Shown here: positions 33,352 to 60,616 of the stretch, one piece after another
Position numbering within the stretch: position 1 is the first letter of the stretch
How the letters are laid out: every line of letters starts with the position of its first letter
DNA from: Octopus vulgaris
Taxonomy: Eukaryota
Reading direction: 5' to 3'
Assembly: GCA_951406725.2 (NCBI GenBank)
Contig: OX597832.1
Coordinates: 51,646,001-51,710,000, forward strand
Length of the DNA: 64,000 nucleotides
The notes under the pieces: model-generated
Seen by the model: only the letters and a program-made list of their open reading frames with translations
The model's database searches: none
What the model was told of the DNA's origin: nothing
Made by a program: the position numbers and the translations under genes

Positions 33352-34224
33352 TTATAAGTAAAGTTCTGTTTTGACATAATCTATTGCATCAGGTTTTTGT
33401 TGTGTGTCTTTTTGTTGTAATTTATCCATTTTTTTATCTAGCCTTTGCAAAGAATCTGATAGTTTATGAACATTAGCATTTACAAGATTACAAGAACTTG
33501 TTGGATTTTGAGATAATCCTTGTCTTTCATTTTGAATATTTTTGTCTTGAACCTCATCTAATGAGGAGTCCATAGCCTCTACAACGTGTTCATGTGGTAC
33601 ATAATCATCATTACAATTCACTTTTACATTTTCTTCGACTGTTCTACCATTGAACTTTGAAGTATCTATATGATTGCTTTCTTTATTTTCAGTTTGTAAA
33701 ATCTGTCCCTTCAAAGGTTTACTTTTATAAGAGTTAGTGCTTTCTTCGGGAATTTCCGAAATGTAATCTGGTTCAGAGAATATATAATCTGTGATACTCC
33801 CATTACTGTTTGTATTTTCACATGGAGGAATAGGATTCGATACAAGTTTCTTAAAATCATTTGGTTCATCAACATAATCTGGGCTACTGGAGACATTTTC
33901 CTCCATGTTACCATTCACACATGTGGAAACTGATGTAGATTGAACTTCAATGAAAGAACTATCTGGTGGTTCATCAGCGTAATCTGTTCTACTAGAGACA
34001 TTTCCCTTCATGTTACCATTCACACATGTGGGAACTGGGTTTGTTCGACGCTCACTTAAAGCAGATAATTCATGAGTATAATTTTTTGCATTGTCTGGTA
34101 ACTCATTAACTTGAACATAGCTTGGAATATGGTTTGCTACATCAGTTAGTAAACTCTTGTCAGATAAAGATTCCAGAGAATCATAGCCTGTTGATGTGTC
34201 ATTTTCTGGCGGAGTATTGACCAC
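33352..34224 (-). CDS. Receptor last coding exon; 290-aa acidic, Tyr-rich cytoplasmic tail
   Basis: Acceptor ttttttcag|GTG; open to TAA at 33352-33354. Translates VVNTPPENDTSTGYDSLES...DAIDYVKTELYL*. It is the longest non-repeat ORF in the window and has no kinase domain. Confidence 0.9.
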   Translation of the reverse strand: MVNTPPENDTSTGYDSLESLSDKSLLTDVANHIPSYVQVNELPDNAKNYTHELSALSERRTNPVPTCVNGNMKGNVSSRTDYADEPPDSSFIEVQSTSVSTCVNGNMEENVSSSPDYVDEPNDFKKLVSNPIPPCENTNSNGSITDYIFSEPDYISEIPEESTNSYKSKPLKGQILQTENKESNHIDTSKFNGRTVEENVKVNCNDDYVPHEHVVEAMDSSLDEVQDKNIQNERQGLSQNPTSSCNLVNANVHKLSDSLQRLDKKMDKLQQKDTQQKPDAIDYVKTELYL

Positions 34225-34329
34225 CTGAAAAAAGAAATAAGACGTGTATATATTAATATATGTGTGTGTATGTGTGTTTGAGTTTATAATAATAATGATA
34301 ATAATAATAATAATAATGAAATTATTGTA

Positions 34330-34765
34330 TACAGTGCTCAGGTGCACCATAACTTGTCAAAAGTGCATATAAAGCATATGCAGTAATGTACAAATGCCTG
34401 GAAAGTGAACAGTGTATGAGTCAGATACATGCTTGCGTGTGTATGGAGGAGAGAAAATCAGGTGTAGTGTTGGCGAATCTCAGGAAGCATGGAAGTTTTG
34501 AAGGATGCAGTGCTCCGACAACTAGCAACTGATGCCAGCAGTTTGTTCCATGCTTCAGCAACTCTCAGCGTGAAAAAATGTTTCCTGAAGCCATGGGAGC
34601 TGTGCTGTTTTCTGACTTTGTAAACATGTCTATGGGTGTTAGACAGATGGAGTTTGAAAAGGTGCTCAGAGTTATTGTTAGTAAGATGGTTAATAATTTT
34701 ATTGGTGTCTGCCAAGTCAGCTGCCAGATGTCGGAGTTTCAATGTATCCATGCCCAGTTTGTGCA
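34330..34765 (-). mobile_element. CR1-type LINE 3' end
   Basis: LGMDTLKLRHLAADL...RKHFFTLRVAEAWNKL followed by a 3'UTR and ATT-type tail. Confidence 0.8.
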
Positions 34766-34789
34766 TATACACATATGTGTGTTTATCTT

Positions 34790-35886
34790 TTATCTTTACT
34801 TGTTTCATTCAATGGCCTGTGACCATGCTGGGGCACCACCTTGAAGGGTTTTGAGCAAAGCCTTGTACTTATTCTATTGGTCTCTTTTGTCTAAATGCTA
34901 AGTTACAAGGATGAAAACAGACCAACATTAGTTGTCGAGAGATGGTAGAGAATAAACACAAACATAAAGGGACACAGCTCAGCCGTGTGGTAAGAAGTTT
35001 GCTTCCCAACCACATGGTTTTGGGTTCAGCTCCACTGTGTGACATCTTGGGCAAGTGTCTTCTACTGACCAAAGACTTGTGAGTGGATTTGGTAGGTGGA
35101 AATTGAAAGAAGCTTATCATATATATACTCTTTTTACTCTTTTACTTGTTTCAGTCACTTGACTGTGGTCATGCTGGAGCACCGCCTTTAGTCGAGCAAA
35201 TCGACCCCAGGACTTATTCTTTGTAAGCCTAGTACTTATTCTATCGGTCTCTTTTGCCGAACTGCTAAGTTACGGGGATGTAAACACACCAGCATTGGTT
35301 GTCAAGTGATGATAGGGGGACAAACACAAACACACACACATATATATATATATATACACATACATATATACGATGGGCTTCTTTCAGTTTCCGTCTACCA
35401 AATCCACTCACAAGGCTTTGGTTGACTTGAGGCTATAGTAGAAGACACTTATTTTCTTGAAGAGTTCAGTTAAATAAACATAGGCACTAATAAAGAATTA
35501 TCCATAATTCTGATTGCCTTTTTAAAGATATATATCTATCTTGACAGCTTGACAACTGGTGTTGGTGTGTTTACATCCTTGTTACTTAGTGGTTTTCCAA
35601 AAGAGGCTAATAGAATAAGTACCAGCTTTAAAAAAAGTACTAGAGTCAATTCATTTGACCACAAATTCTTCAAGGTGGTGCCACAGTCTAATGACTGAAA
35701 CAAATAAAAGATATATACATATATAGATAGGCGTAGGTATGGCTTTATGGTAAGAAGCTTGCTGGGTTCAGTCCCACTGCATGACACCTTGGGCAAATAT
35801 CTTCTTCAATAACCTCAGGCCGACCAAAGCCTTATGAGTGGATTTGGTAGACGGAAACTGAAAGAAGCACATCAAATATATATATT

Positions 35887-35944
<58 letters not shown>

Positions 35945-36085
35945 CGTATGTATTTATGCATGTATATCTATGTGTGTGTGTCTTTCTGTCAGTGTTTGTC
36001 CCCCCCCGTCCCACATCCAGTTGACAACTGGTGTTGGTGTGTTTTCATCCCCACAACTTAGCAGTTCGGCAAACGAAACTGACAG
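34790..36085. mobile_element. Cluster of family A SINE fragments in both orientations
   Basis: Repeated family A head, core and tail segments. Confidence 0.75.
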
Positions 36086-36472
36086 TGTATGTGTGTCCAA
36101 GTGTATGTGTGTATGCAGATGTGCACATGTGCACCAATGTACAGATGCATACACTTGCATCAATATACGCATGCATGCAAAACCATAAACACATTCACAC
36201 ACCACATATAGAGCTATATACTTGCCCACGCCACACTTTCCTACTTCCTCCACAACAACCTGACCAATTTCCTAATTGCCACGTGGTCTATTTCCTGTCC
36301 TTCACATGGTCAGTTTCCTGTTCACTATGCGGTACTTCCCAACTAACTGTTGCCCATATACCAACATCAAACCATGACACCACATGACCTTTGTCAACCA
36401 GTTGCTGCCCACCTTACCGTAATAACAATCAACTTGTCATTCAAATTCAAAATTTGAATCAAAAGTTGTGAA

Positions 36473-36507
<35 letters not shown>

Positions 36508-36510
<3 letters not shown>

Positions 36511-37575
36511 TCATCATCATCATCATCATCGTTTAACGTCCGCTTTCCGCGCTAGCACGGGTTGGACGGTTTGACCGGGTCTGGGAAGCCAGGGGCCGCA
36601 CCAGGCTCCAGTCTGAATCTGGCAGAGTTTCTACGGCTGGATGCCCTTCCTAACGCCAACCACTCCGTGAGTGGATTGGGTGCTTTTTACGTGCCACCTG
36701 CACAGGGGCCGGAGGGTCCGGCATCGTCACGATCGGTTCGAGCATTTTAACGTGTCAGCGGCACGGGGGCAACGAGGTCCGGGGTACTTTGGGGATCCAG
36801 GGTACTTTGGGGATCCGGGGTACTTAGAATGAGTAGGGGGTATGTGGAATTGCTGCAGAAAGCAGCCCGGGTCTTTGTAGTCACAGCATTTATCGTCACT
36901 GAGTAACGTAATTAGGTAGAGGAAAGAAATACAGATATTCTAGAGTTGAGTTGGGGAGGGGGAGGTCCAGTTGAGGCGGGTAATATAGGAGAGCAACCAG
37001 TGGGGAAGGTTGGGGTAAGGAGGAACGATGGCAGGAAGGGTTGGTGTAGGTTCCTAAGAAATAAAGACATTCGTTATCGTCACTGAGTAACGTTATTAGG
37101 TAGAGGAAAGAATACAGATATTCTAGAGTTGAGTTGGGGAGGGGGGTCCAGTTGAGGTGGGTAATATAGGGGAGCAACCAGTGGGGAAGGTTGGGGTAAG
37201 GAGGAACGATGGCAGGAAGGGTTGTTGTAGGTTCCTAAGAAATAAAAACGTAGGATATTACGAGGCGGGAGGGTGCTAAAGGGGGATAGTCGGAATGAGG
37301 CAGTGTCAGGAGGAAGCGTAAGATCGGTGGGCAGTTGATGAGCTATGGCGCTAGCAGCTTGTCTTTTCACAGTGAAAGCATATGAGGAGAAGGGGTAGTG
37401 GGGGGAGGAGGAGGGAGTAGGGCGTACCCGGTGTAGATGAGTAAGGCGTATCCGGTGTAGATGGTGAGGACAGGGTATACTGGTATTGGTGGTGGGGGGT
37501 GAGGAACAGTGTTCACCGGTATTGGTGGTGTTGGCGGTGAGAACAGTGTTCACCGGTATTGGTGGTGGGGGTGAT
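36508..37575 (-). mobile_element. Composite GC-rich retroposon: tandem-repeat body plus RTE-derived 3' tail
   Basis: RTE tail 36508-36780; 18-bp, ~184-bp, 21-bp and ~36-bp tandem repeats; (TA)n on both sides. Confidence 0.6.
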
Positions 37576-37584
37576 ATATATAAA

Positions 37585-37615
<31 letters not shown>

Positions 37616-37632
37616 ATATCTATATCTATCTA

Positions 37633-37672
<40 letters not shown>

Positions 37673-37676
<4 letters not shown>

Positions 37677-38952
37677 GTTGTCAAGAAAGTTCTTGGGATT
37701 TTTAACCTTTAAATTCAGATGTGCAATCTCGGCTCAAACGAAACTTTATAAATCGAAATAAACACAATCAGAATCAACACACTTTTGCCAACGCGAAACA
37801 AGTTTATTTATGCCAGTAGCGTAAAAATCCTGTGTTCTGCTGGCGATGAAGTCGTTGAAGGCGTGTTTGGCATTGTCTTGATTTTTGAAGCATTTCTCAA
37901 GCAGGAAGTTGTCAAGATGCTTGAAAAAGTGGTAGTCGGTAGGCAAGAGGTCTAGTGAGTATGGTGGATGAGGCAGAGTTTCGTAGCCCAATTCGTTCAA
38001 CTTCTGCAGGGTCAGTTGTGTGACGTGCGGCTGAGCATTGTTGTGGAGAATTGATCCTTTTCCATTGACCAATGCTGGCTGTTGTTGTCGGAGTTTCTTA
38101 TGCATTTCATCCATTTGCTGACAGTACTTCTCTGCCATAATGGTTTCACCTGGATCCCAAAAGCTGTGATGGATGAGACCGGCCGCAGACCACCAAACAG
38201 TCACCATGACCTTCTTTTGGTGCAACTTTGGCTTCGGGAAGTGCCGTGGAGCTTTGTCGGCATCCAACCACTGAGCTGAGCATTGCTGGTTGCCGTAAAG
38301 AATCCACTTTTCATCGCAAGTCACAATCCAGTCGAGAAACGGGTCATTCTTGTTGCATATGAGAAGGGAAGACAACACTTCAGAACGGCATTTTTTTTTG
38401 GTTGTCATTCAATTCGTGTGACACCCATTTCTCAAGTATTTTTGTTTTTCCTGTCTCTTTCAAGTGGTTGGAAATTGTTGTATACATTACATCTAATTCA
38501 AAAGCAATCCCTTGAACAGTTGTGCATGAATTGGCTTTCACTAAGGCTCTTAGTTGATCGGTGTCAACATCCGATGGCTGAGCACTACGCTTATCATCTT
38601 CAAGACTCTCGTCACTGCTACAAAATTTCTTGAACCACCATTGTGCTGTACGTTCATTAGTGGTTCCTGGGCCAAATGCATCATTGATAGCGCTGTTTCA
38701 GCAGCTTTTTGGCCTAGCTTGAACTGGAATAAGAAAATTGTGCGAATTTGCTTTTTGTCCATGTTGTATTCAACATGGACGGAAAAAATGGCCTAATTAT
38801 TCAAAAAGCAAAAGAGTAACATGATTAGATAGAGCACAAAACGGGCTTTAAAATGATATATAAAGTCAAAGTAATTTAATGAAAATTAATTTGAAAATAT
38901 ATCATTTAAAACCAAAATTTAAAATTCCACAAGCACTTTCTTGATAACCCAA
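37673..38952 (-). mobile_element. Full-length (1280 bp) mariner, cecropia/Hsmar1-like; transposase frameshifted
   Basis: TA-flanked TIRs ttaggttgtcaagaaagt and actttcttgataacccaa. Protein motifs [36 protein letters not shown] (second catalytic D is N) and [16 protein letters not shown]. Confidence 0.95.
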
Positions 38953-38970
38953 TATATATAAATATCAGTT

Positions 38971-39002
<32 letters not shown>

Positions 39003-39542
39003 CAGCTACATATATATAAATACTCACACACTTACATACAGAGAGAGAGAGAGAGTGCAAAGTAGGCCATGTGCTGATCATGTGAATAGTCAGTCAAGTA
39101 GGACAGGAAGGTATTGTAGTATTATCATTGTCAACTCCACAACTACAAGGACAAAGGAAACACATGAGAGAGAGAGAGAGGGGGACATAGGAGGAGGTAG
39201 AGTAGGAGGAGGGGGAAATAAAGAGGTTTTCAGTCTGACCAGATTATAAAATTTATTCTTTTCTACTCTATGCACAAGGCCCAAAATTTTTGGAGAGCGG
39301 GGATAGTCGATTGGATCGACCCGAGTACTTAACTGGTACTTAATTTATTGACCCTGAGGTTATAGAATTTATTGAAAGCGTTATAGCTAAGCTGATTAGA
39401 CAAGGATTCTTGAAGGCTAGAAATGAAGCTAGCAGGACCTGCTGGATGCGTAATGTCAGTGCACAAGAACGATGGGATACAAATGGGAAGAGTGAAAACC
39501 TGGGTATTAGGGGTATCAGATACAGTGTGCAAATGAGAAGGA

Positions 39543-40090
39543 TGTGCTGGTTTCGTCTGTCGTTACGTTCTGAGTTCAAATTCTGCCGAGGTTGAATTTG
39601 CTTTTCATCCTTTTGGGGGGTCGATAAATTAAGTACTAGTTACGCACTGGGGTCAATGTAGTCGGCTTAATCCGTTTGTCTGTCCTTGTTTGTCCTCCCT
39701 GTGTTTAGCCCCTTGTGGGTAGTAAAGAAATAGATATTTCATCTGTCGTCACGTTCTGAGTTCAAATTCCGCCAATGTCGAATTTGCCTTTCATCCTTTC
39801 GGGGTTGATAAATTACGTACCAGTTATGCACTGGGGTCGATATAATCGACTTAATCCATTTGTCTGTCCTTGTTTGTCCTCTCTGTGTTTAGCCCCTTGT
39901 GGGTAGTAAAGAAATGGGTATTTCGTCTGTCGTTACGTTCTGAGTTCAAATTCCGCCGAGGTCGAATTTGCCTTTCATCCTTTCGGGGTTGATAAATTAA
40001 GTACCAGTTACGCACTGGGGTCAATGTAGTCGGCTTAATCCATTTGTCTGTCCTTGTTTGTCCCCTTGTGTGTAGTAAAGAAATAGGTAT
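39543..40090 (+). repeat. Three tandem ~180-bp units of family B SINE
   Basis: Units start near 39550, 39735 and 39918 at (g)tatttcgtctgtcgttacgttctgagttc. Confidence 0.9.
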
Positions 40091-40364
40091 TGGGCATTTA
40101 ATTCACATGGAGGATGACAACTGCATAAAGTAGTGCCAGGTACTAAAAGTAAAAAAGGGAGGCCTAAGAAGAAATGAGATGGGTGAAGTGAAGGCCGACT
40201 TGAGAATACTGAGTCTTACAAAGGAGATGATAACTGGCCATGACGTTTGTCATCCTGTAAGCGCAATGCTGGAGAGAGAGAGAGAGAGAGAGGGAGACCA
40301 ACCTGTGATAGCATCATAGTAGGAATGGGGACTAAGAGATATGTAGATCTCTAATCCAATATGA

Positions 40365-40756
40365 CACTCTTTTACTTGTTTCAGTCATTTGACTATGGCC
40401 ATGCTGGAGCACCGCCTTCAGTTGAGCAAATCAACCCCGGGACTTATTCTTTGTAAGCCCAGTACTTATTCTATCGGTCTCTTTTGCTGAACCGCTAACT
40501 GACGGAGACGTAAACACACGACCATTGGTTGTCAAGCAATGTTGGGGGGGGGGTGACAAACACACATATATATTTATACATATACATATATACGACAGGC
40601 TTCTTTCAGTTTCCGTCTACCAAATCCACTCACAAGACATTGGTCGGCCCGAGGCTATAGCAGAAGACACTTGCCCAAGATGCCACACAGTGGGACTGAA
40701 CCCAGAACCATGTGGTTGGTAAGCAAGCTACTTACCACACAGCCACTCCTGTGCCT
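40365..40756 (-). mobile_element. Family A SINE
   Basis: Full-length match. Confidence 0.88.
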
Positions 40757-42048
40757 ATGTTAAACTTCCATATTCTTCACCTCATTACCTTTTTGATACT
40801 TTCTCCTTTCTGTTATGACTTATCTCTCCATCATTCATATGCTTCATCACAAGCATTAACCTCTATCAGTCATTCATGCCGCCTTTCCTCTTTCCTATTC
40901 TTTGTACCATACTGCCTGTGCAACAAGGGTGGAAGTGAATTTTTTCCTATACAATTATTCTACTTTCAATTGCAGCATGGAAGGTGTTTGTAAGCCATTC
41001 AAGAAACACACAAAAGCCATTCGATTCACTTCAACATTTAAGTTTAATTTGTCAAAATATTTTCGTCGCTTTAAGACCGCGATCTGTTCACTGACAAAAA
41101 TCCGTGCTGCTTTGATAAAACTGAGTAAAATAATATTAATTATATAAAATAATATTAATTATAAAAATAATAATAATAATTGTAAAAATAAAAATAATAA
41201 TATTTTTTCTAATTTTAGTACAAGGTCAGCAACTTTTTAGAGGATGCAGAATTTGAGTACATCAACTCAATTGGTACTTATGTGCTCAATTGGTACTTTT
41301 GTGAGCAAACCTGAAAGGATGACAGCTGATTCAGAATAATGTAAAGAGTTGCAAGAAATGCTTTACCGATTCTGCTAGTTCAGTGTCATGCTAATGGCAC
41401 CCGTGTCACTGGCACATGAAAGCACTCTCGGAGTGGTTGTCATTCAGGAAGGGCATCCAGCTGTAGAAACCCTGCCATTTCAGACTGGAATCTGGTGCAG
41501 CCTTCCAGCTTGCCAGCCCTGGTCAAACTGTACAACCCATGCTAGCATGGGCAATGGACATTAAATGATGATGCTGATGATACTGTACCATGCTGTTTGC
41601 ACAACTAGAAATAGCAGTGAATCTGGGCAGCCTTCTCTTTCATTTACTGAGTTGTGTGATGAAGAACTGCATGGGCCCTGTGTATATTCTACCACCATGC
41701 TTATCATTCTTCTTCTCTCCAACATTAAAATGTCTACGTATGAAGGGCAGTCATTGGATCTTATTCATACTAAATTCACCCTACCATACCCTTCCTGTAC
41801 TGGTAGTTGTGACTCCCTCCTCATTTCAAGTCGCTTGTTATTACACTCCCTCATGAGAGCAAATGTGTCGCTTCCATCACTTTCTCTCTTCCATTACCCC
41901 CTCCAGCAATGTTACTTCTCTATTATTCCCTCCTCTAATCACCCTCTCACTCTAATCACTCTGTTTCACCCATCACACTCTCATTCCCTTCACTCACTCA
42001 CCCTGGTTCTTCTGTTAATGGGCTCTTTTCAATCCATGTTCATGGTTC

Positions 42049-42188
42049 TAGAAGAAATGAGATACTCAGAAATCTGGATAGTTTTATATTTACAGATATT
42101 TATTAGTATGTTACGTGTTTTTATAACATACAAATAAATATCTGTAAATATAAAACCATCCAGATTTCTGAGTACATCATTTTTTCTA
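42049..42188. repeat. 140-bp near-perfect hairpin (palindromic MITE-like)
   Basis: ~65-bp arms (tagaagaaatgagatactcagaaatctggat... and ...atccagatttctgagtacatcatttttcta) with a ~10-nt loop. Confidence 0.9.
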
Positions 42189-42227
42189 ATATATAATACC
42201 TGTACATCATTTCCAAACCTTCTAATG

Positions 42228-42273
<46 letters not shown>

Positions 42274-42531
42274 CTCATCGTTTAACGCCCGTTTTCCAAG
42301 TTAGCATGGGTTGGACGGTTTGACCAGGGATCTGGGAAGCCAGAAGGCTGCACCAGGCTCCAGTCTGATCTGGAAGTGTTTCTACAGCTGGATGCCCTTC
42401 CTAACGCCAACCACTCCATGAGTGTAGTGGGTGCTTTTTACGTGCCACCGGCACAGGGATCACAACTGCAGTTTCCATTGATTTTGATGTTGGTGTACTT
42501 GACTCAATGGATCTCCTCAAGCACAGGGTCG

Positions 42532-42570
<39 letters not shown>

Positions 42571-42575: not shown

Positions 42576-45400
42576 TAGACATGGGCGATTGTTGTATTCT
42601 TTCTTGTCTTGAGGTTCACAGCCAAACGGGTGGGTGGATTTGCGTGAAAAATGGCACACATGTGGAGACAGGTGCATAGATTGGAATGCAATTTGTATTT
42701 TTTTTCCTAGCCCCCATAGTTACCGAGAAAATCAATGAAAACTTTTCTAATGGAATTCCCATGCCAACATACATAACCACTCTCTCTCTCCTTTCCTCTG
42801 TCAGTCACTCACACATTCACTCACTACAAAAGTGAATAACAAAATTTCAGTTCACTCTCTCTCGGCCATAATAGATACATACATCTATGTATACATATAT
42901 ACTTACATACATACATACATACATAACAATCTGCGTGCATGTGTGTGTGTCACTGAAGCCATTCATACATACATAACCTCTCTCTCTCTCTTTTACTCTG
43001 TCAATACTCACACATTCACTCACTACAAAAAGTGAATAAAAAATTTCAGTTATCTCTCTCTCTCTTTTCACACACGCTAACAATAGCAATTCACATATAC
43101 ACCACACATTCTGTCTCACACACCCCATCAAACACACACACACACATACACTCTCTCTCTCTCATTCTCACACACACACATCAATTCTTCCGCTTCATGC
43201 CAACTTCAAAAGAACTTCACTCATACAATCACTATCTCTCTGTGTCTTTTGCTTTCACACCAACTTCAAAAGATCCCCTTTCCACCCAACCCTATATTAC
43301 AAAAATAAAAATTTCTTATGGAGAAGGGCTCCTGACTCCTTTTACTGCAGGCGAAGGAGTAAAAAACGAAGATATTTTCACTTGTCCGGACATTGCTATT
43401 ACAGACAAATTAACAACAATTTGACTCGAGAGATAAACACAAACTACCTCATGCTGACTGCAAAAATCCTGCCAAATTAGCCGGAATAATACACACATCC
43501 ATTTCATATATCTTCTTTCAATTTCTGCTCTTTGATTACAAAGACGTCCAATACAATAGCTCTCACCTACATTTTGTTCTCTAAAAAGGTACGTGTCTAT
43601 TTTTTCTATAAGCGTATAACAATGACTTATTTCATACTTCTCCACTTAGCTTTTATCTCCACTTTTCTTCAACTGGATACGTCTGCTGTTAAATTGCAGA
43701 ACTTTGGCAGTACAGTTAAAAATCATTTCTGCTTTACTTCTTACATACAATTTCCCCGTAAATTCTTACAGCTTCATTTTTTGGTGATGATTGAAATGTC
43801 AAACATTTTCTAACTGTTAAGCAATTCTTAACATCAACTTCTTAATGCCTCTTCTATTTTTTTCCTAGCCTCCATACTTAGTAAGAAAATCAATTAAAAC
43901 TCTTTGTTCTGCCATTAAAACAACCAGTTATTCACACAGCTGCCATATACTATTCCGCTAGCAACAAGGGGACTACAGGATGACAGTCAGCCAAAACTTT
44001 CCCTATGCTATCTCTCTTCTTTCACCTCTTTGTGGGGTTAATTATCTTCATCTTTAGTTACAGTTTCTCATTAAAACTACATAATATGCAGAATTGTCGG
44101 ATTAATACAGTAGGGTGTTTTGAGGGAGATTTGGCTGCTATTTCTACCAGGTCTACCAACCATGTAGAGGTCTGAACTTGATTTTCATTCACAGATTTGC
44201 ATTTCAAAAATTTCCCACTGAGACTACGTACAAATTCTTTGTTCACAACTCCTGAAGTTGTTTTCTGCGAAGATATTTTCATTTGTCCGAGCATTGCTAT
44301 TAGACAAATTAACAACAATTCAACTCAAGAGATAAACTCAGTTGCTCACACAGCCGGCATATACCATTTCGCTAGGAACAAGGGGACTACAGGATGACAG
44401 TCAGCCAATACCTTATGCCTAACTAAAAACGATAGGCGATCTCTTATCATTTAGCTTCATGCTTATTCACTATTGTCCTTCAAAGCTGCATGCTTTTTTT
44501 TAGAAACATTTCATTACTTTTTTTCTTATTTATCATTATACATTTCCACCTATAATAAAAGATAAAGATTAATACTTCGTTCAAAAACCTTAAAGTTTCC
44601 CTTTCAGACACGGGTTCAAGTTTCAAAAAAACTATACTTTCGCTACACTTACTATTTGCTTCTTTAAAAAATCTCATGACTTTTGCCTTAGTAAAAACCA
44701 TCTTTACAGATAATGCCTAACCAAAAACAATCAATGCTCTGTTCCAAAAGGAATGCCCTCCTAAAACAGCGAAAAAGTGAGTTGTGTTCACAGGTACGTT
44801 TTTCAACCTTCATATCATTTCGATTTTGCTTCCACACATTCTCCTGTATCCCATTTCAATATTGCACTTTCATATATGTCCTCTACTATTCCTTTCAGGA
44901 AACACCAGAAGCAAGAGAGGCCCGTCTTGCTGCACAGCGTAGTCATGATCAACGCTCACTACTTGACGAGCCTGTTGAAGCAAGGCAGGCCCATCTTGCT
45001 TCCATGCATATTTGAAATCAGCGCTCATTCTTTGAGGAGTTGGCAGAAACAAGACAGGCCCGTCTTGCTGCCCTGGATGTTTCAATAATGTGTATCGGCA
45101 CGTGGATGATAATCAAAAAATTATACTCCCGCGTTCTGCAGGCAACCGTCTTGAATGGACCAGCCACTGTTATAGACACATATCATATCTCTCCGACTAA
45201 CTGCATATTAATGAAAATAGAAAGATTCCAACCTCAGTTACAGATTAGATATTTGAAAAAACTTACTAGAGTTTCACAGACAATTCCAGAATATGGCGCA
45301 TGGTTGCTATTTTCTCCTCCAATTGTATCAGGATAATGGTACTCAGCAGAATTAATTCTAGGATCCTAAATAGATATTAAACAAAGTGTATACAAATTTA
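42571..45400 (+). mobile_element. Internally deleted Helitron remnant with N-terminal repeats and a helicase fragment
   Basis: ETPEAREARLA/EARQAHLA/ETRQARLA repeats (44899-45075) and IKKLYSRVLQATVLNGP (Pif1-like). Internal duplications at 43369/44269 and 43933/44346. The 3' end was not found. Confidence 0.55.
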
Positions 45401-48311: not shown

Positions 48312-48399
48312 CTGGAATAATATTGTTTCAGGCATAGAAATATTGCCAGTATTACAGACAGTAATACAGGTACAATTATTGCAACCAGATTTACAAATT
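48312..48399 (-). CDS. Receptor transmembrane exon
   Basis: Acceptor tttttcatag|AA, donor CCAG|gtaagt; 88 nt, phase 1 to 2. Translates EFVNLVAIIVPVLLSVILAIFLCLKQYYS: a hydrophobic helix followed by a basic residue. Confidence 0.92.
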
Positions 48400-51673: not shown

Positions 51674-51838
51674 CTGTGTCTTTAGTCATTCCTATTGTGG
51701 GGTCACTCATTACACTTAGTCCAGCCTTTGTCTTCACTTGTATACATACTGTATATTCTGTGCCTGTTGATAGGCCATTGATGACAACATCATTTTCAGC
51801 AGCTTTTATTCCAATCACTGGAAATTCTTTCTTCGTAC
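51674..51838 (-). CDS. Receptor exon; C-terminal half of membrane-proximal FN3 domain
   Basis: Acceptor cctttatag|GT, donor ACAG|gtaaag; 165 nt, phase 1 to 1. Translates GTKKEFPVIGIKAAENDVVINGLSTGTEYTVCIQVKTKAGLSVMSDPTIGMTKDT (FN3 I.GL..GTEY.V.I...T.AG.S..S signature). Confidence 0.92.
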
Positions 51839-52865
51839 CTATAAAGGATTTTTAAAAAGAGAAAAGGAAAGCATTTTACCATTTCTTTATATTTATTTTA
51901 CCAGTCACAGAATATCTTTATGAAAGACAGGAATACCACATCTTTTATTTCTATTTTTCTGCACCAAACATATGGTTTACAGAATGATATACAATGATGA
52001 TGATGACGATGGCCAGAACAGCAACAACAAAGTCAGTACCAACATGAAATTAGAATATGGAATTGGAATACAGGAGGAGTTTCTTTTAAAAATTACTTTA
52101 AGGAATAAAAAATACAAGAGTCCCATGGGCAGCTTTCAACATTTTCTATCCAAAGGGATTTTTTAACTTGATATTTATATGCTATCATTTATAGCTTTAT
52201 CTGCTTCAAGGTCCACTGTTCCAAAAACAGAATCATTTCATTTTCTCTTTAAGTTTACAAAGTCTTATGTCCTCAACAACATGCAGTTCCTGTTGGTAAG
52301 AATAAAGTTTCTAAGATGGGTAAAGAAATTTGAAAGAATGCTTTGGTCCAATGGTAGAACATCTTTCATGTTGACAGGAGATGTGGGTTCATGTCCCACA
52401 AGTAGAATTTGACCTTTTCTATCTAAAGGGTTTTTTAACCCAATATTTACAGGCTATTATTTATAAACCTTTTCTGGTTTGAGAGTTGCCTTTCCAAACA
52501 CACAAAAAAATATTTCTTGTTCTCTTGAAGTCAATAAGTTTTATATCACTGTCAACATTTCTTATTAATTTTGGAGTAAGTTTCGCCAATGAGTATTCAG
52601 TTATATCCATCAATTGAATGACTTAAACATTGAATAGTGTGCAAGTGGCGGAGTACTCCACAGACATATGTAATTTGAACTTAACTTTCAAGAAGAATCA
52701 GTGCTACCCAGTGCAACAGACCTGGACATTGAACTTCTACACAGTTTTTGTCAACCTTTGTGTATGTTTACATTGCTTTTGCAGCTAAAGATTTTACTAG
52801 CTCAAATCAGTGAAATTCTGCAGTTGAGAGGTGTGCCAGATATTGTTTTGATTGTTCCGTATGCA

Positions 52866-53285
52866 GGTGCAGGAGTGGCTGTGTGGTAAGTAGCTTGCTT
52901 ACCAACCACATGGTTCTGGGTTCAGTCCCACTGCGTGGCATCTTGGGCAAGTGTCTTCTGCTATAGCCCCGGGCTGACCAATGCCTTATGAGTAGATTTG
53001 GTAGACGGAAACTGAAAGAAGCCTGTCGTATATATGTATATATATGTGTATGTGTTGTGTGTATATGTTTGTGTGTCTGTGTTTGTCCCCCTAGCATAGC
53101 TTGACAACCGATGCTGGTGTGTTTACATCCCCGTCACTTAGCGGTTTGGCAAAAGAGACCGATAGAATAAGTACTGGGCTTACAAAGAATAAGTCCCGGG
53201 GTCGATTTGCTCGACTAAAGGCGGTGCTCCAGCATGGCCGCAGTCAAATGACTGAAACAAGTAAAAGAGTAGAAGAGTAAAGAGT
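52866..53285 (+). mobile_element. Family A SINE
   Basis: Full-length match. Confidence 0.9.
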
Positions 53286-53299
53286 ATGCATTCTATTTT

Positions 53300-53980
53300 G
53301 TCTGAGTTAACATGGAAATTGACATCTCTTCGGTTGAATGTTCAGAACTATGGAGAATGGTTTCTGCTTGGCTTTTTAGATCAGAGAATAGCACGAAAAC
53401 CATCAGCTTAATCTGCATTTATGATCCCTTTATAGCAGGAAATATAATCCTTCTTCATGGATTTAGTGTGAATCCATTGTCTTTAATGGTATCAAAAGAA
53501 CTTCTGAGAATGTAATTGAAGCAAATGATGAAGACAGTGTCTTGTAGCCCTCCTGCAACAATTTCAAAGAAATCTGTGTCACCATCTGGATCCTTACCTC
53601 AAAACTAGAAAGAAGAAGATTGGATGGAGCCTACACTTGCATACTAAGGATAGCTTTGAATGTCACTTGGAGAGGTCGTCTGACCAATGAGTGATTGTAT
53701 GGGAACCTTTGTCCAGTATCAGACATCATCAAAGAGTATTGAGTCAGATTTGCAGGGTATTGCTGGACAACTAAAGATGAAATTTTTAGTGAAGTTCTTT
53801 AGTGAGAGCCTATGCAATGAAGAGCTAACAGAGGATGACAAGTCAAGACCTATATCAAGCAGATTTGTTATGACAAAAACTGCAACCCCTCTGGCCTATT
53901 GATTGTGATGAACAATAGAACTGGATGGCAACAGAGTCATGGGAATCTATGCAAGGAATGCTAGTGGATGATGGTGATTG
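53300..53980. mobile_element. Old RTE LINE fragments (partly inverted)
   Basis: Minus-strand DGDTDFFEIVAG.LQ and DFRSKPSRN pieces; plus-strand LRIALNV.W and AG....DEI.S pieces resembling 28618-28985. Confidence 0.5.
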
Positions 53981-54194
53981 CCAACCTATTTTCACTTAAG
54001 AAGCTTAAATTGACCCAAAGCTATGGTAAAAATATTGCTTGTGAAAAACACTATACTTTGGAATCAAATCCAGTATGCCCCAAAATTGCAAAATGAATGT
54101 CTTAAGCATTTTCTAGTTGTACTGTGTCTAGTTGGAGTACAAGTATAAGAAATGGGTGAAAGCCACTTGATAATGCAGACTGAAGAGGGCTTAA

Positions 54195-54415
54195 CCCTTT
54201 AGTGCTTGCATTATTCTGCCAAAATTAATCCTTTTTTATCCAAATTGTTTTGAACTAATCATGCATTGTTTTATAGCTATGAGATTTTGATGAGGTAGCT
54301 GTTAATTTTTAAACCGATATTGTAGGGTTGGTGTAAGAGACCAGATCTGGCCAGTTTGAACATAAAACAGGCAGAATACTTTTGGCCAGATATGGCCGGT
54401 TTAAACACTAAAGGG
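54195..54415. mobile_element. piggyBac-like MITE
   Basis: TTAA|ccctttagtg...cactaaaggg|TTAA. Confidence 0.82.
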
Positions 54416-55259
54416 TTAAGCAATTTTTAATAAGAAAAAAAAAATGGAAAATTCAAAATGAAAGATTGATAAAAAATGGTACTAACATGAATCTGACAAA
54501 TATAGAAACACAGAATGTAGCATGCAGAGGGACAGAGTGCAACCTTCAAAATAATCTGTGAACTTCTAGAACTTGTATAATGTTATTGAATTATGATTCT
54601 AAGAGCATAATGTGAACAGCATCATTAATATATAAACAAACAAAATTCTTATTGAAAACAGCTTGTAAGAAAACCTAACTTCCTTTTTCATACAGCTGGT
54701 TGTATATTGATTGATAAGCTCTTTGTGGTCATATATAGTTTAAAATGTATATACAAATACTAACTGGTTTACAAACATCTGTCTTACTAAATTGCATCTC
54801 AGCAATTCTTAGATTTTGTAAGTTATGCTAACTCACAAGTCTTTTCATAGAAAATTTAATAACATGCCTAATTTTAGAGCTTATTCTTATAAACCACTTA
54901 CAATCACAACTCAAAAATGGTAAGAGTTCTCCTTGACTTCAGAAGTTTGCAATTAATTTCCTGTGCACTGAGTTTGTATTCGTTATATAATGGCATTTGT
55001 TTATTAAATAATAACGCTGGTACTAGTTACGTATTAAGTTAAACTTTTCCCTCAGCCTAATAGGAATAGCTGCCAAATCTCCCTCAGTTCAGATATTAAC
55101 ATTAAAAAAAAAAAAATACCCCAAAACAGGACATGTTTAATGATAAGGTCGTAGATATAATCTGTCCAAAAGAAAAATAGGTGACACTTAGGATAAATTT
55201 GGTTCTGATTTCTTAAAGTGGGTGGAATGCATGGAAGTGGGAGACCCAGGAAGGCAGGG

Positions 55260-55867
55260 GATGAAGCACTGAAGGATTATCTTGATGGCGATGATGATGA
55301 TGATGACTGTGTTGATGATGATGATGATGATGATGATGGTGTTGATATAGATATTGCTGCTGCAGATGATGATGTTGATGATGAAGATGGTGATGATTAT
55401 AATGACGATGACGATGATGAATATGATGATAGTGATAATGATGATGTGGATGGTGATGATGGATCGTGGTGTTGACAATGATGATGATGATGATGATGAT
55501 GATGAAGATGATGATGAAGATGATACAGATATTGCTGCTGTAGATGATGATGATTTTGTTGATGATGACAACGACGAAGATGATGAAGAAGATGAAGAAG
55601 ATGATGGTGGTGGTAATGATGATGGGGATGGTAATGGTGGATCATGTTGTTGATGATGATGATGATGGTGATGATGATGGTGATGATGATGGTGATGATG
55701 ATGATGATGTTGATGATGATGATGATGGCGATGATGATGATGATGATGATGAGAAAGTGGAGGAGAAGGAGCACAATGATAATATGAAAATATTAAAGAT
55801 AACGATAACGATGTATTTGTACCATCGTAACAGCCACTACAAACAACAACAACAACAACAACAACAA
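55260..55867. repeat. Degenerate (GAT)n region with ~180-bp higher-order duplication, then (CAA)n
   Basis: gatattgctgctg at about 55350 and 55528; gatggatcgtggtgttga / gtggatcatgttgttga at about 55458 and 55637. Confidence 0.85.
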
Positions 55868-55900
55868 ATGGAAAAGGACTCATCTAAAAAGAATACTCAC

Positions 55901-56041
55901 CATTTTCACAACTCTTACCCTCTGCATAATGCAGCACATAAGCAATGGGTATATCATTCCAGTCAGAACATTGCAGTGTAGGCCATGTAAGAGAAAACTT
56001 AGTTTCTGACCAACTGATACCAGGTGTCCGAGGTTTCTTGG
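55901..56041 (-). CDS. Receptor exon; N-terminal half of membrane-proximal FN3 domain
   Basis: Acceptor tgtttcag|CC, donor AATG|gtgagt; 141 nt, phase 1 to 1. Translates PKKPRTPGISWSETKFSLTWPTLQCSDWNDIPIAYVLHYAEGKSCEN (FN3 P..P, L.W, Y.L.Y pattern). Too short for the ORF track. Confidence 0.9.
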
Positions 56042-56065
56042 CTGAAACAGCATAAGATCTTTCTG

Positions 56066-56128
<63 letters not shown>

Positions 56129-56194
56129 TTGTAAGGATGGGCGAAAGTCTGGTGTGCTAACGATTCTACCAGTTCACTGCCTTTGATCTCAATA

Positions 56195-56414
56195 ATACTG
56201 TAAGCACAAGGCCCGAAATTTGTGGGGAAGTGGGGGGGGGGGCAGTCGATTAGATCGACCCCAGTATGCAACTGGTACTTAATTTATCGACCCCCGAGAG
56301 GATGAAAGGCAAAGTCGACCTTGGCAGAATTTGAACTCAGAACACAGCAACAGATGAAATATCGCTAAGCATTTCATCCAGCATGCTAACGTTTCTGCCT
56401 TAATAATAATAATA

Positions 56415-56447
<33 letters not shown>

Positions 56448-56450
56448 TTG

Positions 56451-56488
<38 letters not shown>

Positions 56489-56700
56489 TCTTTCTATGGG
56501 AAGCACAAGGCTTCAAATTTGGGGGAAAGGATTAAGTCGATTACATTGACACCAGTGGGTAATTGGTACTTATTTAATTGACCCCGAAAGGACGAAAGGC
56601 AAAGTTGACCCTGATGGAATTTGAACTCAGAATGTAGCAGTAGACGAAATATCACTAAGAATTTCACCCAGTATGCTAATGATTCTGCCTGCTCACTACC
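56195..56700 (-). mobile_element. Two family B-related SINEs separated by (AAT/GAT)n
   Basis: Meta-like core present twice. Confidence 0.8.
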
Positions 56701-56701
56701 C

Positions 56702-56747
<46 letters not shown>

Positions 56748-56749
56748 TT

Positions 56750-57760
56750 ATTGTTTTATTAGCCATAAGGGCTCACATACAAAACATTAAAGCAGGACGA
56801 TATAATGGGTTTTCCATGTGTACGCAATGTAATAACAATAAAAATACCTAATAGGGGAGGCACTTTAAGGTCCTCATGGAAAAACCCACGAAAGCCACAG
56901 TTGCCTGAACAACAGAGTAAGAGACCTTCTCCTTTAATTCCATTTTTTATAGGTGCACACTCAGAATTGGTCCTTCCAACATTCACCCTCCTTTAAGCAA
57001 ACTTGCTAGAAGGCAACACTTCCCTCTCCTGCCTCTTTTACTCTTTTACTTGTTTCAGTCATTTGACTGCGGCCATGCTGGAGCACTGCCTTTAGTCGAG
57101 CAACTCGACCCCGGGACTCATTCTTATTGTAAGCCCAGTTCTTATTCTATCGGTCTCTTTTGCCGAACCGCTAAGTAATGGGGACATAAACACACCAGCA
57201 TCGGTTGTCAAGCAATGCTAGGGGGACAAACACAGACACACAAACACGCACACGCATACATATATATACATATATATGACGGGCTTCTTTCAGTTTCCGT
57301 CTACCAAATCCACTCACAAGGCTTTGGTCGGCATGAGGCTATAGTAGAAGACACTTGCCCAAGGTGCCACGCAGTGGGACTGAACCCGGAACCATGTGGT
57401 TGGCAGACAAGCTACTTACCACACAGCCACTTCTGCGCCTTCCTTCTCTCAAATGAAACTTGAAAAAGTTGATGAGGGCTTGGCCAAAGAGGAAAGTGTC
57501 TGTCTTTAGCCCTTTCAAAAGGGTCCACCACACTACTTCTTTCACTACAGCCATTAGACAAATAAAAATTACCTGCCCCTCACGGCCAAAAGAAGGTGGC
57601 AGAGTAATCTTCACAATGGTTTCAGCTGATGGCCGGATCCGTGCCACACGCGACAGCAGGTGTTCGACATAAACCCACGGGTCAGCAATACTCAGGCACT
57701 GGACTAGGGCATGCACAACGGTTTCATCATTCTGGGTGCACAATGTCACAAACAATGACA
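56750..57760 (-). mobile_element. L1/Tx1-type LINE 3' fragment, interrupted by a family A SINE (57036-57439)
   Basis: C..N.ETVVHALVQC (CCHC knuckle) and .KEVVWW motifs of the ORF2 C-terminus. Confidence 0.7.
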
Positions 57761-57811
57761 CAAGACCAGCAATTTTGAGGGGGAGAGTGTAAGTTGATTA
57801 TATTGACACCA

Positions 57812-58220
57812 GGGCGATGAGCTGGCAGAACCGTTAGCACGCCGGGCGAAATGCTTAGCAGTATTTTGTCTGCCGTTTCATTCTGAGTTCAAATTCCGCC
57901 AAGGTCGACTTTGCCTTTCATCCTTTCGGGGTCGATAAATTGAGTACCAGTTACGCACTGGAGTCGATGTAATCGACTTAATCCCTTTGTCTGTCCCCTC
58001 TATGTTTAGCCCCTTGTGGGTAGTAAAGAAATAGGTATGTCGTCTACCGTTACGTTCTGAGCTCAAATCCCGCCAGGGTCAACTTTGCCTGTCATCCTTT
58101 CAGGGTCGATAAATTGAGTACCAGTTACGCACTGGGGTCGATGTAATCGACTTTAATCCCTTTGTCTGTCCTTGTTTGTCCCCTCTATGTTTAGCCCCTT
58201 GTGGGTAGTAAAGAAATATA
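57812..58220 (+). mobile_element. Family B SINE, two tandem units
   Basis: The second unit restarts at ggtatgtcgtct (about 58034). Confidence 0.85.
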
Positions 58221-58332
58221 TATTGACACCAGTGCTGAACTGGTATTTCTGTTCTTAACCTTGAGAAAATGAAAGTTAAAGTTAGTCTCGGTGGAATTTA
58301 AGTTTCTACTCATAAACAGCTTGAAGAGAACA

Positions 58333-58834
58333 TATGTGAGTGCGTGTGTCTCTGTACGTGAGTGTATGTATGCGTGCATGTGTGTGATTGAGTGTGTGTA
58401 TGCGGTTGTGAGCATGTGTGTGGCTGCATAGATGTGCATGTGTGTATTTGTGTTTTGTGTGTGTATGTGTGTTTTGTGTGTGTGTGTGTGTATGTGTGAC
58501 TGTACGTCAGTGTATGTATGCGTGCATGTGTGTAATTGCGAGCATGTAAGAAACTGCATGTGTGTGTATCTGTACGAGGTTGTGAGTATGTGTGTGTGTG
58601 GCTGCATATGTTTGCATGTGTGTGTGTGTGTGTGATATTGTGTGTATGTTGTGTGTGTGTGTGTGTGTGTGAAACTGTACATCAGTGTATGTATGCGTGC
58701 ATGTGTGTGTGTGTGTGTGTCATGTTGTGTGTATGTTGAGTGTGTGTATGTGACTGTACGTCAGTGTATGTATGCATGCATGTGTGTGTATCTGTATGAG
58801 GTTGTGAGTATGTGAGTGTGGCTGCATATGTTTG

Positions 58835-58875
<41 letters not shown>

Positions 58876-58895
58876 GTGTTGTGTATGTGTGTGTA
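58333..58895. repeat. Cryptic (TG)n region with internal duplications
   Basis: gactgtacgtcagtgtatgtatgc and gaggttgtgagtatg...ggctgcatatgtttgcatg each recur. Confidence 0.85.
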
Positions 58896-59194
58896 TTACA
58901 GCAGACTTACTGTTGTCAAGTACTGATAATTTGTATCTGGTTGCTGTCAAGTTGGACAGACTTGAAATGTGAACCAACCAAACTATTTTCTCTAATAAAA
59001 AAAAAATCTAACAATATCAGGTGGGGTGGCGGAATTTTATATATCCACAAGCAAAAAGCGAAAAGTAGGACAAAGAAAAAAGGAATAAAAAGCAGCAACC
59101 CCCTACCCCCCCACCCGTAAACAGTAGAGCGCCAATGTAAATATGCTGTGAACTGGGAATTCCCAATCAACAGGTCATGGAGCATGTTGTATGC

Positions 59195-59607
59195 TCTCTT
59201 TACTCTCTTTTACTCTTTTACTTGTTTCAGTCATTTGACTGCGGCCATGCTGGAGCACCGCCTTTTAGTCGAGCAAATCGACCCCGGGACTTTATTCTTT
59301 TTGTAAGCCCAGTACTTATTCTATCGGTCTCTTTTGCCGAACCGCTAAGTGACGGGGACGTAAACACACCAGCATTGGTTGTCAAGCAATGCTAGGGGGA
59401 CAAACACACACACACACGCATACACATATATATATACATATATACGACAGGCTTCTTTCAGTTTCCGTCTACCAAATCCACTCACAAGGCATTGGTCGGC
59501 CCGGGGCTATAGCAGAAGACACTTGCCCAAGATGCCATGCAGTGGGACTGAACCCGGGACCATGTGGTTGGTAAGCAAGCTACTTACCACACAGCCACTC
59601 CTGCGCC
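59195..59607 (-). mobile_element. Family A SINE
   Basis: Full-length match. Confidence 0.9.
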
Positions 59608-60465
59608 TATATTTATGCATATATTTATCTGTTTATCAGTGTGCGTGTGTATGTGTGTGTGTGTGTGTGTGTGTATGTGTGTGTGTGTGTGTATGCATCT
59701 ATCTAGCCAGCCAACCAACCAGCCAGCCAGCTCTCTCTCTCTCTCTCCCTCTCTATCTGTCTATCTATCTATCTTTCTCTCTATCTATCTGTGTATCAAT
59801 CTCTCTTGCACAATGCACCAACAACTTAGACTCAGGTAATATCTATCCACCTCAGTTTCTTCCATTCCATAGTTTCAGGAAAACAGGTGATGGATTGTGA
59901 CGTATATTTCCATTTAAACATGGCTAACCCCTAAGGGTGGATGCTACTGTAGTTTGTAGCCCCAGGAGGACACCTCCTCCAGCTGGCTATAGACACACTT
60001 TCTGTGCCCTATCAGCATTTGCAAAGGGAAGCCATCCTTCCCGTCTTCAACTTATGCTACACATGGACTCGAGTTTCTGGGTATTGACCCGTCACCGGCG
60101 CGTGATAATCACAGTTGTCAATGAAAAGTAGGTTCCCTACACAAATACTTATACCTTTTTCCAGTATCGTACTGACACTGATATCGAAAAAGTACTTTCT
60201 TACAATCATTTTTAAGAAAGTCATTTTATGGTTGAACAATTTCTCATCTACCAAGAACATATAATTTCACAAAAACCACCTGCAATACAGCAGCAGCAGC
60301 ATAACAGGAGATGTACACCATTCCAAGGTAAAAAACAATGACTTTGGTAAGCAGATGCTGAGGGCCACCACAAACTCTATCAGAGACTTCATATTACTTA
60401 TTCTGGGTATAAAACAATGGGACACATACTAGTGATAATAATAAATTGAGATAAATTAAATTTAC

Positions 60466-60616
60466 GTTTTCCAGGTGTAAATATACATTCAGCGTTCATT
60501 AAAGAACTGCTTCCATTTTCTGTGCTAACGTATGCAGCAAAAACAGGACTTTGTTCTGCTCTGTAATTTACCAACAGATAACTTTCATTCACAAGTGTTT
60601 TCCATTTGACATGGTC
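60466..60616 (-). CDS. Internal exon (most 5' found) of a Domeless/gp130-like type I cytokine receptor; C-terminal half of an FN3 domain
   Basis: Acceptor ttgcttctag|GAC, donor AAAC|gtaaat; 151 nt, phase 0 to 1. Translates DHVKWKTLVNESYLLVNYRAEQSPVFAAYVSTENGSSSLMNAECIFTPGK, resembling the FA(V/I)S..SSGM.W..C segment of invertebrate Domeless-type receptors. In phase with the next exon. Confidence 0.85.

Follow-up and report, generated by a model that had tools for sequence, protein, structure and literature searches.

A Predicted gp130-Type Cytokine Receptor Gene of Octopus vulgaris and Its Probable Gene Conversion with a Neighbouring Paralogue

Introduction

Which kind of receptor is encoded by a chain of short exons scattered among repeats on one Octopus vulgaris contig, and how is it related to the similar genes located next to it? 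The analyzed stretch (G000:C19:51646001-51710000, i.e., 64,000 nucleotides (nt) of contig OX597832.1, hereafter the window) carries the 3' part of this gene, referred to as gene A, which had been described in an earlier note as a hidden cytokine receptor resembling Domeless or gp130. Invertebrates are usually described as possessing one signalling class I cytokine receptor, namely Domeless. The genome studied here encodes at least five such receptors, three of them in one cluster, featuring eroded cytokine and JAK motifs as well as region-specific homogenization. Gene A itself is real and already annotated, and its receptor class is already known in molluscs. The interpretation favoured in this study, taken as a whole, is that of a gp130-type receptor which undergoes gene conversion with its paralogue B and functions as a ligand-specific chain beside a JAK-carrying partner; the chances of this complete reading being right or wrong are considered to be balanced.

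Structure and Annotation of Gene A

The following coding exons of gene A were identified, listed in the order of transcription:

G000:C19:51711494-51761941, minus strand, exons 1-10, encoding signal peptide, immunoglobulin (Ig) domain, cytokine-binding module, first FN3 domain and first half of the middle FN3 domain
60466..60616 of the window, minus strand, exon 11 of 17, 151 nt, phase 0-1, second half of the middle FN3 domain (equivalent of gp130 D5)
55901..56041, minus strand, exon 12, 141 nt, phase 1-1, first half of the membrane-proximal FN3 domain (equivalent of D6)
51674..51838, minus strand, exon 13, 165 nt, phase 1-1, second half of the membrane-proximal FN3 domain
48312..48399, minus strand, exon 14, 88 nt, phase 1-2, single transmembrane helix
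47144..47189, minus strand, exon 15, 46 nt, phase 2-0, juxtamembrane segment where Box1 would lie, lacking the LP/PXP proline
45267..45365, minus strand, exon 16, 99 nt, phase 0-0, intracellular tail
33352..34224, minus strand, exon 17, 873 nt including the stop codon, disordered tail (predicted local distance difference test (pLDDT) values under 50)

Exons 11 to 15 and 17, which had been proposed earlier as a six-exon gene, were reproduced by an open-segment scan and coordinate join with AG/GT borders, a total length of 1,464 nt, incoming phases of 0-1-1-1-2-0 and a stop-free translation. They are 77-92% identical to the O. bimaculoides orthologue P0013 (92% for exon 11) and are all contained in GenBank/RefSeq models, an agreement exceeding chance. 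The observation that the open reading frame (ORF) track does not show four of the six exons in their coding frame also fits, as the six short exons lie in stop-to-stop frames of 39-90 amino acids (aa) with ATG-initiated ORFs of at most 33 aa. Exon 16, visible in the same AG..GT scan, had been overlooked. It is present in all seven gene-A protein records compared (P0001, P0002, P0004, P0006, P0007, P0013 and P0014), is 71% identical in O. bimaculoides and possesses no separate counterpart in paralogue B, whose tail is encoded by one exon. Because this exon had been missed, the tail length of approx. 305 aa had to be corrected to approx. 346 aa. Likewise, the two FN3 domains reported for the window correspond to one complete domain and only the second half of another. 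Direct joining of the six exons is possible in frame and was rejected as a true transcript, since exon 16 is skipped in none of the seven gene-A proteins. The chain of seven exons in the window is thus real, its junctions resting on splice signals, phases, gene models and cross-species conservation. Among the sequencing runs listed in a run search, 15 of 24 share half or more of the words of the last exon, and many of these runs are presumably RNA; this was not counted as evidence for the junctions.

By including 200 kb of upstream DNA, gene A was resolved into 17 coding exons, all bounded by AG/GT, which extend from C19:51761941 to 51679352 and encode an intact protein of 1,023 aa. The window holds the last seven exons, the other ten being located beyond its end. 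Of the 11 tyrosines in exon 17, several stand in D/S-Y-[VIA] contexts; the exon also contains a 34-aa tyrosine repeat in two copies and a C-terminal DYVK motif that paralogue B shares. The tail exon matches P0001 (100%, Octopus vulgaris), P0002 (O. sinensis, LOC115222231) and P0004 (O. bimaculoides), all termed 'uncharacterized'; the gene is therefore not hidden, being already annotated as uncharacterized LOC115222231. Word-indexed homologue searches returned only Octopus A and B proteins (5, 5 and 4). A literature search, with most subscription papers outside its reach, found no paper dealing with LOC115222231, with an expansion of these receptors in cephalopods or with gene conversion among paralogous cytokine receptors.

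The GenBank model P0001 (955 aa) omits two intact exons (G000:C19:51731072-51730931 and 51722746-51722655), both of which the models of O. sinensis and O. bimaculoides include. The omission removes part of the cytokine-binding module, one skipped exon holding the strand at the WSXWS position. Moreover, a cluster of poly(A)-signal hexamers at 32570-32085 of the window (minus strand), 0.8-1.3 kb past the stop codon, may mark the end of the 3' untranslated region.

Assignment to the gp130-Type Receptors

In group 2 class I receptors, an Ig domain forms the N-terminus and FN3 modules separate the binding module from the membrane (PMC1963337). For gene A, an AlphaFold2 model of P0002 was computed on a 35-row alignment of family members. 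It comprises six confident beta domains, a helix at residues 651-682 and a disordered tail. Within the predicted ectodomain, two tandem FN3 folds form a cytokine-receptor homology domain, and the six beta domains, i.e., an N-terminal Ig domain, the binding module and three FN3 domains, are collinear with gp130 D1-D6. They are followed by a single transmembrane helix and a long disordered tail, and Pfam annotated fn3 and neither a kinase nor a phosphatase domain, in accordance with the non-kinase tail claimed previously.

Foldseek placed IL-6-family/IL-12 receptor complexes in its top nine rows over the whole ectodomain (E values of 4.6e-27 to 5.3e-22), with TMq values of 0.32-0.41 versus 0.16 for contactin-2 at rank 10. 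In VIA-align, residues 142-340 were superimposed on the CNTF-complex receptor chain 8d74_C (Z 14.4, root-mean-square deviation (rmsd) 3.6, 187 aligned residues) and residues 23-647 on gp130 (Z 14.2, rmsd 9.2, 537 aligned residues). Furthermore, the first neighbours in a language-model atlas were clusters of LIFR-like proteins (0.96), LEPR (leptin receptor), IL12RB2, OSMR and gp130, and a profile search of the PDB yielded IL-12Rb2 at an E value of 8e-4. Three observations speak against this assignment: the sequence-only PDB search was headed by Dscam and LAR-type phosphatases (E 3e-4 to 9e-4), the predicted model is not independent of the family alignment used for folding, and neogenin FN3 pairs also reach a VIA-align Z of 13.1. 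Therefore, the collinear six-domain match, and not the Z score, carries the case.

Based on predicted structure, language-model neighbours and profile matches with receptor labels, a gp130-type group 2 layout, starting with a signal peptide and ending with the intracellular tail, is proposed for gene A, which agrees with the class suggested in the earlier note. This predicted layout, from the signal peptide to the long disordered tyrosine tail, is common to gp130/IL6ST, IL-12Rb2, G-CSFR, LIFR and OSMR. Vertebrate group 2 genes likewise occur as local duplicates, such as IL6ST-IL31RA and IL23R-IL12RB2 (PMC12284397). Gene A differs from the gp130 group in the absence of the first cysteine pair, WSXWS, the Box1 PXP and a distal YXXQ, and its identity to group 2 vertebrate receptors amounts to 14-16%. 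As the duplication is specific to cephalopods, likeness to any one vertebrate chain does not represent orthology.

Mosaic Similarity between A and B

Gene A belongs to three paralogues arranged as B(+), C(-) and A(-) within 310 kb. A and B are oriented towards each other across 192 kb, and C lies in this interval:

C19:51451023-51487168, plus strand, paralogue B, a family match mapped in the G000 genome
C19:51523383-51633732, minus strand, paralogue C, between B and A

From the binding module through to the juxtamembrane exon, A and B have the same intron phases, and their similarity is patchy along the gene. The binding-module exons are 26% identical with saturated synonymous sites, versus 96% and a synonymous divergence (dS) of 0.04 in the first FN3 exon. 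Values for the middle FN3 domain are 70% and 0.32-0.50 (exon 11: 70% and 0.50), and those for the last FN3 domain 80-87% and 0.07-0.08 (exon 12: 0.07, exon 13: 0.08). The helix and juxtamembrane segment is only 17% identical, and the distal tail again reaches 89% with a dS of 0.11. As NG86 estimates of dS are rough for saturated exons, codon identity at sites encoding the same residue is the safer measure: 22 of 50 such codons differ in the binding module versus 1 of 74 in the first FN3 exon (Fisher p 1e-9). Identity also extends into introns: it continues for 108 nt beyond one exon and starts 145 nt ahead of another. For exon 13, the similarity to B takes in approx. 145 nt of the upstream intron (87% over 335 nt). 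Identical runs of A and B attain 118 and 121 nt, and two likely conversion tracts were delimited in the window:

55890..56007, minus strand, likely conversion tract, 118 nt identical to B, across the donor site into the intron
33364..33820, minus strand, likely conversion tract in the distal tail, 89% aa identity to B, with identical runs of 97, 53, 47 and 46 nt

Within 55890-56007, the O. sinensis A record differs from the A protein of the window at three residues, and at these positions the latter equals B. The candidate tracts taken together are not fully identical between A and B.

For comparison between species, DNA from one genome was combined with protein records of the others. In the last FN3 domain and tail of O. 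vulgaris and O. bimaculoides, 13 sites are common to both paralogues of one species, none shows the cross-pattern and 14 follow the paralogue pattern. In the last FN3 domain of Argonauta, 23 species-pattern sites were counted versus 1 and 1 for the other patterns. Within Argonauta as well as within O. bimaculoides, the paralogues resemble each other in these regions and carry lineage-specific residues. Trees computed by region conflict: Argonauta B joins Octopus B in the binding-module tree (support 94/93), and Argonauta A joins Argonauta B in the last-FN3 tree (99/100), where orthologue clades were rejected (approximately unbiased test, p-AU 3e-7 and 5e-6).

Saturated exons beside homogenized synonymous sites and introns, together with conflicting region trees, point to recurrent gene conversion. 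Synonymous and non-coding identity is confined to tracts, as is expected for ectopic conversion, which is very probably the cause of the patchwork. An old duplication followed by repeated, partly recent conversion is inferred, and the stalk and tyrosine tail of A have likely been kept alike with those of B by this process. Less favourable to this interpretation are site counts from the Octopus-only quartet, in which paralogue-pattern versus species-pattern sites number 7 versus 5 in the last FN3 domain and 7 versus 8 in the distal tail. Since paralogue-pattern sites are as many as species-pattern sites, conversion must be regarded as patchy. Moreover, the juxtamembrane tree fits orthology of the Argonauta genes but does not support it firmly (51/80 and 53/61).

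A comparable system is represented by TLR1/TLR6 and avian TLR1A/B, neighbouring paralogues which, like A and B, exhibit divergent N-terminal ligand ends and converted C-terminal ends; conversion of this type was repeated across lineages and left the same codon-identity signature (PMC3125219). Unlike TLR1/6, A and B belong to another family, and their conversion spans approx. 190-250 kb between inverted, intron-rich genes and proceeds exon by exon, sparing the transmembrane and juxtamembrane exons. Paired receptors such as Siglec-5/14 and CEACAM are described as the opposite of A and B: their ligand ends are alike and their tails differ.

The B tail (G000:C19:51485609-51487168) contains a tandem 102-nt repeat with one tyrosine motif per unit, comprising approx. 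7 units, whereas O. bimaculoides B has 4 and A has 2. In the O. sinensis records, the sequence breaks off inside the array.

Family Members and Orthology

A profile search of 1.84 billion representatives yielded 75 matches, those with names bearing mostly cytokine-receptor labels or 'uncharacterized'; 20 of the matches were looked up. Named clusters among these 20 are Octopus and Argonauta paralogues and a cuttlefish protein labelled PTPRQ; other labels, from molluscs and insects, are LIFR-like, IL6Rb-like, OSMR-like, 'cytokine receptor-like', Lar-like (abalone) and 'uncharacterized'. One O. vulgaris match is labelled 'cytokine receptor domeless'. The family maps to five loci in the G000 genome, which besides A, B and C comprise:

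G000:C19:40402961-40457152, paralogue D, 11 Mb away, fourth member of the clade
G000:C13:9729048-9855353, Domeless-labelled gene (P0100), on a contig separate from that of A

An ectodomain tree (quick LG+G4) was computed from 46 rows chosen from the 75 matches and the cluster members, leaving out long many-FN3 matches and short fragments; it is midpoint-rooted, with long branches and weak deep nodes. A, B, C and D group with the cuttlefish protein in one clade, supported by a Shimodaira-Hasegawa-like approximate likelihood ratio test (SH-aLRT) value of 98, apart from the Domeless-labelled pair. Owing to this cephalopod clade of its own and the separate C13 locus, A represents a divergent paralogue and not the Domeless-labelled gene, with which both the label and the conserved motifs reside. 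Of the two earlier suggestions, a JAK/STAT receptor or a divergent paralogue, the latter is thus upheld by tree and locus; as regards the former, A has neither the LP/PXP site nor a distal YXXQ.

In both Octopus and Argonauta, B is without an Ig domain; C keeps it. The exons of C are 35-59% identical to those of A and B, without a sign of shared tracts at the protein level. For D, the Argonauta protein and a cuttlefish relative carry extra FN3 domains. For the cuttlefish protein P0021, a time-limited search gave no match in the G000 genome; in a local comparison, it matches cluster exons weakly. The Domeless-labelled C13 receptor keeps CX9-12CXW and FWSD and is devoid of a strict WSXWS and a tail YXXQ. 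With this gene as well as with Drosophila Domeless and its tandem paralogue Latran/Eye transformer, gene A has the receptor class, tandem paralogy and a tyrosine-rich tail in common. In abalone, Gigantopelta and oyster (P0025/P0030/P0039, P0024/P0028 and P0040), more than one gp130-like receptor or highly variable clusters were found, which hint at parallel expansions in other molluscs.

Erosion of Cytokine and JAK Motifs

The first cysteine pair (CX9-12CXW) was found in none of the five clade members (A, B, C, D and cuttlefish) and in all five outside proteins. The second pair appears to be kept in gene A, with C182 being near-invariant. None of the ten proteins tested, among them the Domeless-labelled one, has a strict WSXWS. 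In outside proteins, [FY]WS[DN] is mostly preserved, and D and the cuttlefish member retain the YWSD strand. The upstream exons of A, in which a WSXWS-like module had been anticipated, retain only the last W of this motif.

On the intracellular side, the proline of the Drosophila Dome LP motif (P925) is needed for Hop binding (PMC4751595), and definitions of Box1 and STAT motifs are given in PMC7444064, YXXQ being the STAT docking motif and YXXL that for STAT5. No PXP occurs within the first 40 tail residues of A. A hydrophobic-x-hydrophobic-P pattern at most 32 residues from the membrane was present in 20 of 28 other family rows and in none of the seven A/B rows, counting rows with a helix (two rows without one were dropped). 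Paralogue C keeps the motif in three species, also in the G000 genome, and the cuttlefish member keeps the proline. The A tail contains 19 tyrosines, with the 34-aa tyrosine repeat in 2 copies versus approx. 7 in B. Its only YXXQ is the juxtamembrane Y689; YXXL occurs at Y747, besides many D-Y-[VI] motifs. Latran binds STAT without YXXQ or YXXL (PMC4751595). A fails three motif tests under the strict definition; judged by its architecture and descent, the most suitable name for it is degenerate gp130-type receptor.

Proposed Mode of Signalling

Given the absence of the JAK-binding proline and the patches common to B, A would likely signal only together with a partner chain. In the proposed sequence of events, A and B would bind different ligands through their saturated cytokine-binding modules and would hold JAK poorly. 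Ligand binding would bring A (or B) beside a JAK-holding chain, either C as the adjacent candidate or the Domeless-labelled receptor, whose JAK may then phosphorylate the tail tyrosines common to A and B. SH2 proteins (a STAT5/6-type STAT, SHP2 or SOCS) could finally dock on these phosphotyrosines. This sequence, by which different ligands would give the same output, is assigned a likelihood slightly short of even. More tentative and rather unlikely in its full form is a shared-chain system that octopods built independently, with A and B as JAK-less ligand-specific chains which possess converted stalks and tails and signal via C, the conversion having recurred since before the split of Octopus and Argonauta; if true, such a system implies an undiscovered family of cephalopod cytokines. 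Pathway components are on record: IL6R-like receptors were traced to molluscs, with two Octopus abbreviations listed and JAK and STAT reported for molluscs (PMC13203501), both were likewise described for Aplysia (PMC9334734), and the JAK/STAT pathway was enriched in the O. maya white body (PMC6522055). Pfam searches of the G000 genome for STAT_bind, JAK FERM_F2 and JAK SH2 gave no match, and neither did their controls.

Several findings weigh against the proposed sequence. With the first cysteine pair and WSXWS lost, cytokine binding by A is only putative, and a distal YXXQ is absent from its tail. The JAK-site pattern is post hoc, having been defined after viewing the sequences, and the seven A/B rows represent two genes and not seven tests. 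The pattern is also missing in 8 of the 28 other rows, including the Domeless-labelled protein (LPSLP slightly further out), and A of the window has a proline 5 residues later than the JAK site, a residue that O. bimaculoides A lacks. Furthermore, Dome P925I acts as a dominant negative, and the authors concluded that two JAKs are needed (PMC4751595), which speaks for an inhibitory role of a JAK-less chain.

A and B represent concrete orphan receptors for finding cephalopod cytokines, and the locus is a case of vertebrate-like receptor-chain specialization that possibly arose separately.

Alternative Explanations

Self-sufficient signalling of A, as a homodimer or A/B heterodimer binding JAK via a non-canonical juxtamembrane strand, was implied in the earlier note and is unlikely, although the most probable of the alternatives. 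It is in line with the full gp130 architecture predicted for A, its long conserved tyrosine tail, alternating hydrophobic residues persisting at the Box1 position and the pattern-free family rows mentioned above. An A/B heterodimer would moreover combine an Ig-bearing with an Ig-less chain, and the atlas neighbours of B include IL12RB1 and IL27RA-type clusters. Analogous pairings are those of gp130 with IL-27Ra and of IL-12Rb2 with IL-12Rb1. Group 5 vertebrate receptors also lack a canonical Box1 (PMC7444064). However, the proline is required in Dome and is missing in A and B in all species seen, and therefore an A/B pair would carry no canonical JAK site.

Quite unlikely, too, are inhibitory or decoy chains lowering the number of JAKs and recruiting SOCS/SHP2, comparable to Latran/Eye transformer or Dome P925I. 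Besides the dominant-negative effect of the proline-less Dome (PMC4751595), this role is suggested by Latran being a tandem paralogue of Dome (PMC2914635) and by a YXXV of the SHP-2/SOCS3 type (PMC1963337) at Y769 in A and the matching B site. However, Latran is short, has a short tail, lacks FN3 domains and keeps the Hop (JAK) site (PMC2914635, PMC4751595), whereas A is full length and without a Hop site; the tails of A and B are long, with the tyrosine repeat expanded in B, and O. bimaculoides A has YXXN at the Y769 site.

It is improbable that the clade has left cytokine signalling for other ligands (e.g., microbial or matrix) and for Src-type kinases with SH2 adaptors. The distribution of the first cysteine pair would fit this scenario, as would the very fast change of the binding module (26-29% identity between paralogues, 29% between Octopus and Argonauta B). 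Yet the cuttlefish member retains both the JAK-site proline, as does C, and YWSD, as does D, and the predicted fold is still that of a cytokine-binding module.

A patchwork produced without conversion, by purifying selection after a recent duplication or by assembly cross-talk, is very improbable. Cross-mapping reads could homogenize short blocks that are already similar, and the other species are represented by protein records, not DNA; opposed to this are the homogenized synonymous sites and intron flanks beside saturated exons, the lineage-specific likeness within Argonauta and within O. bimaculoides and the incomplete identity of the tracts.

Finally, an Ig cell adhesion molecule (CAM) or receptor-phosphatase-like FN3 adhesion protein, suggested by weak sequence matches to Dscam, PTPRF and PTPRD and by the PTPRQ and Lar-like labels of the cuttlefish and abalone relatives, is barely credible and largely refuted by the atlas, Foldseek and VIA-align results. 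A has one Ig-like domain and no protein tyrosine phosphatase (PTP) or kinase domain, its whole predicted ectodomain matches gp130 and not CAMs, and the top atlas rows are all cytokine receptors or their FN3 clusters.

Repeats and Other Elements in the Window

A broken non-LTR (long terminal repeat) retrotransposon is located at 3400-5600 (plus strand), with a reverse transcriptase match at 4112-4957 (PF00078, E 8e-8). The minus strand carries a remnant of a DDE (Tc1/mariner-type) transposase at 22265-23096 (PF13358, E 2e-5, under the cut-off) and, at 62471-62719, a frame of 83 aa weakly matching a PHD finger (E 4e-5, just below the cut-off), which is likely a retroelement fragment. Introns (e.g., 9674-10008, 39551-40075 and 55290-55752) contain many interspersed repeats of approx. 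180-430 nt, some as 184-nt tandems, as well as long microsatellites; a 460-nt (GAT)n array closely follows exon 12 on its 3' side.

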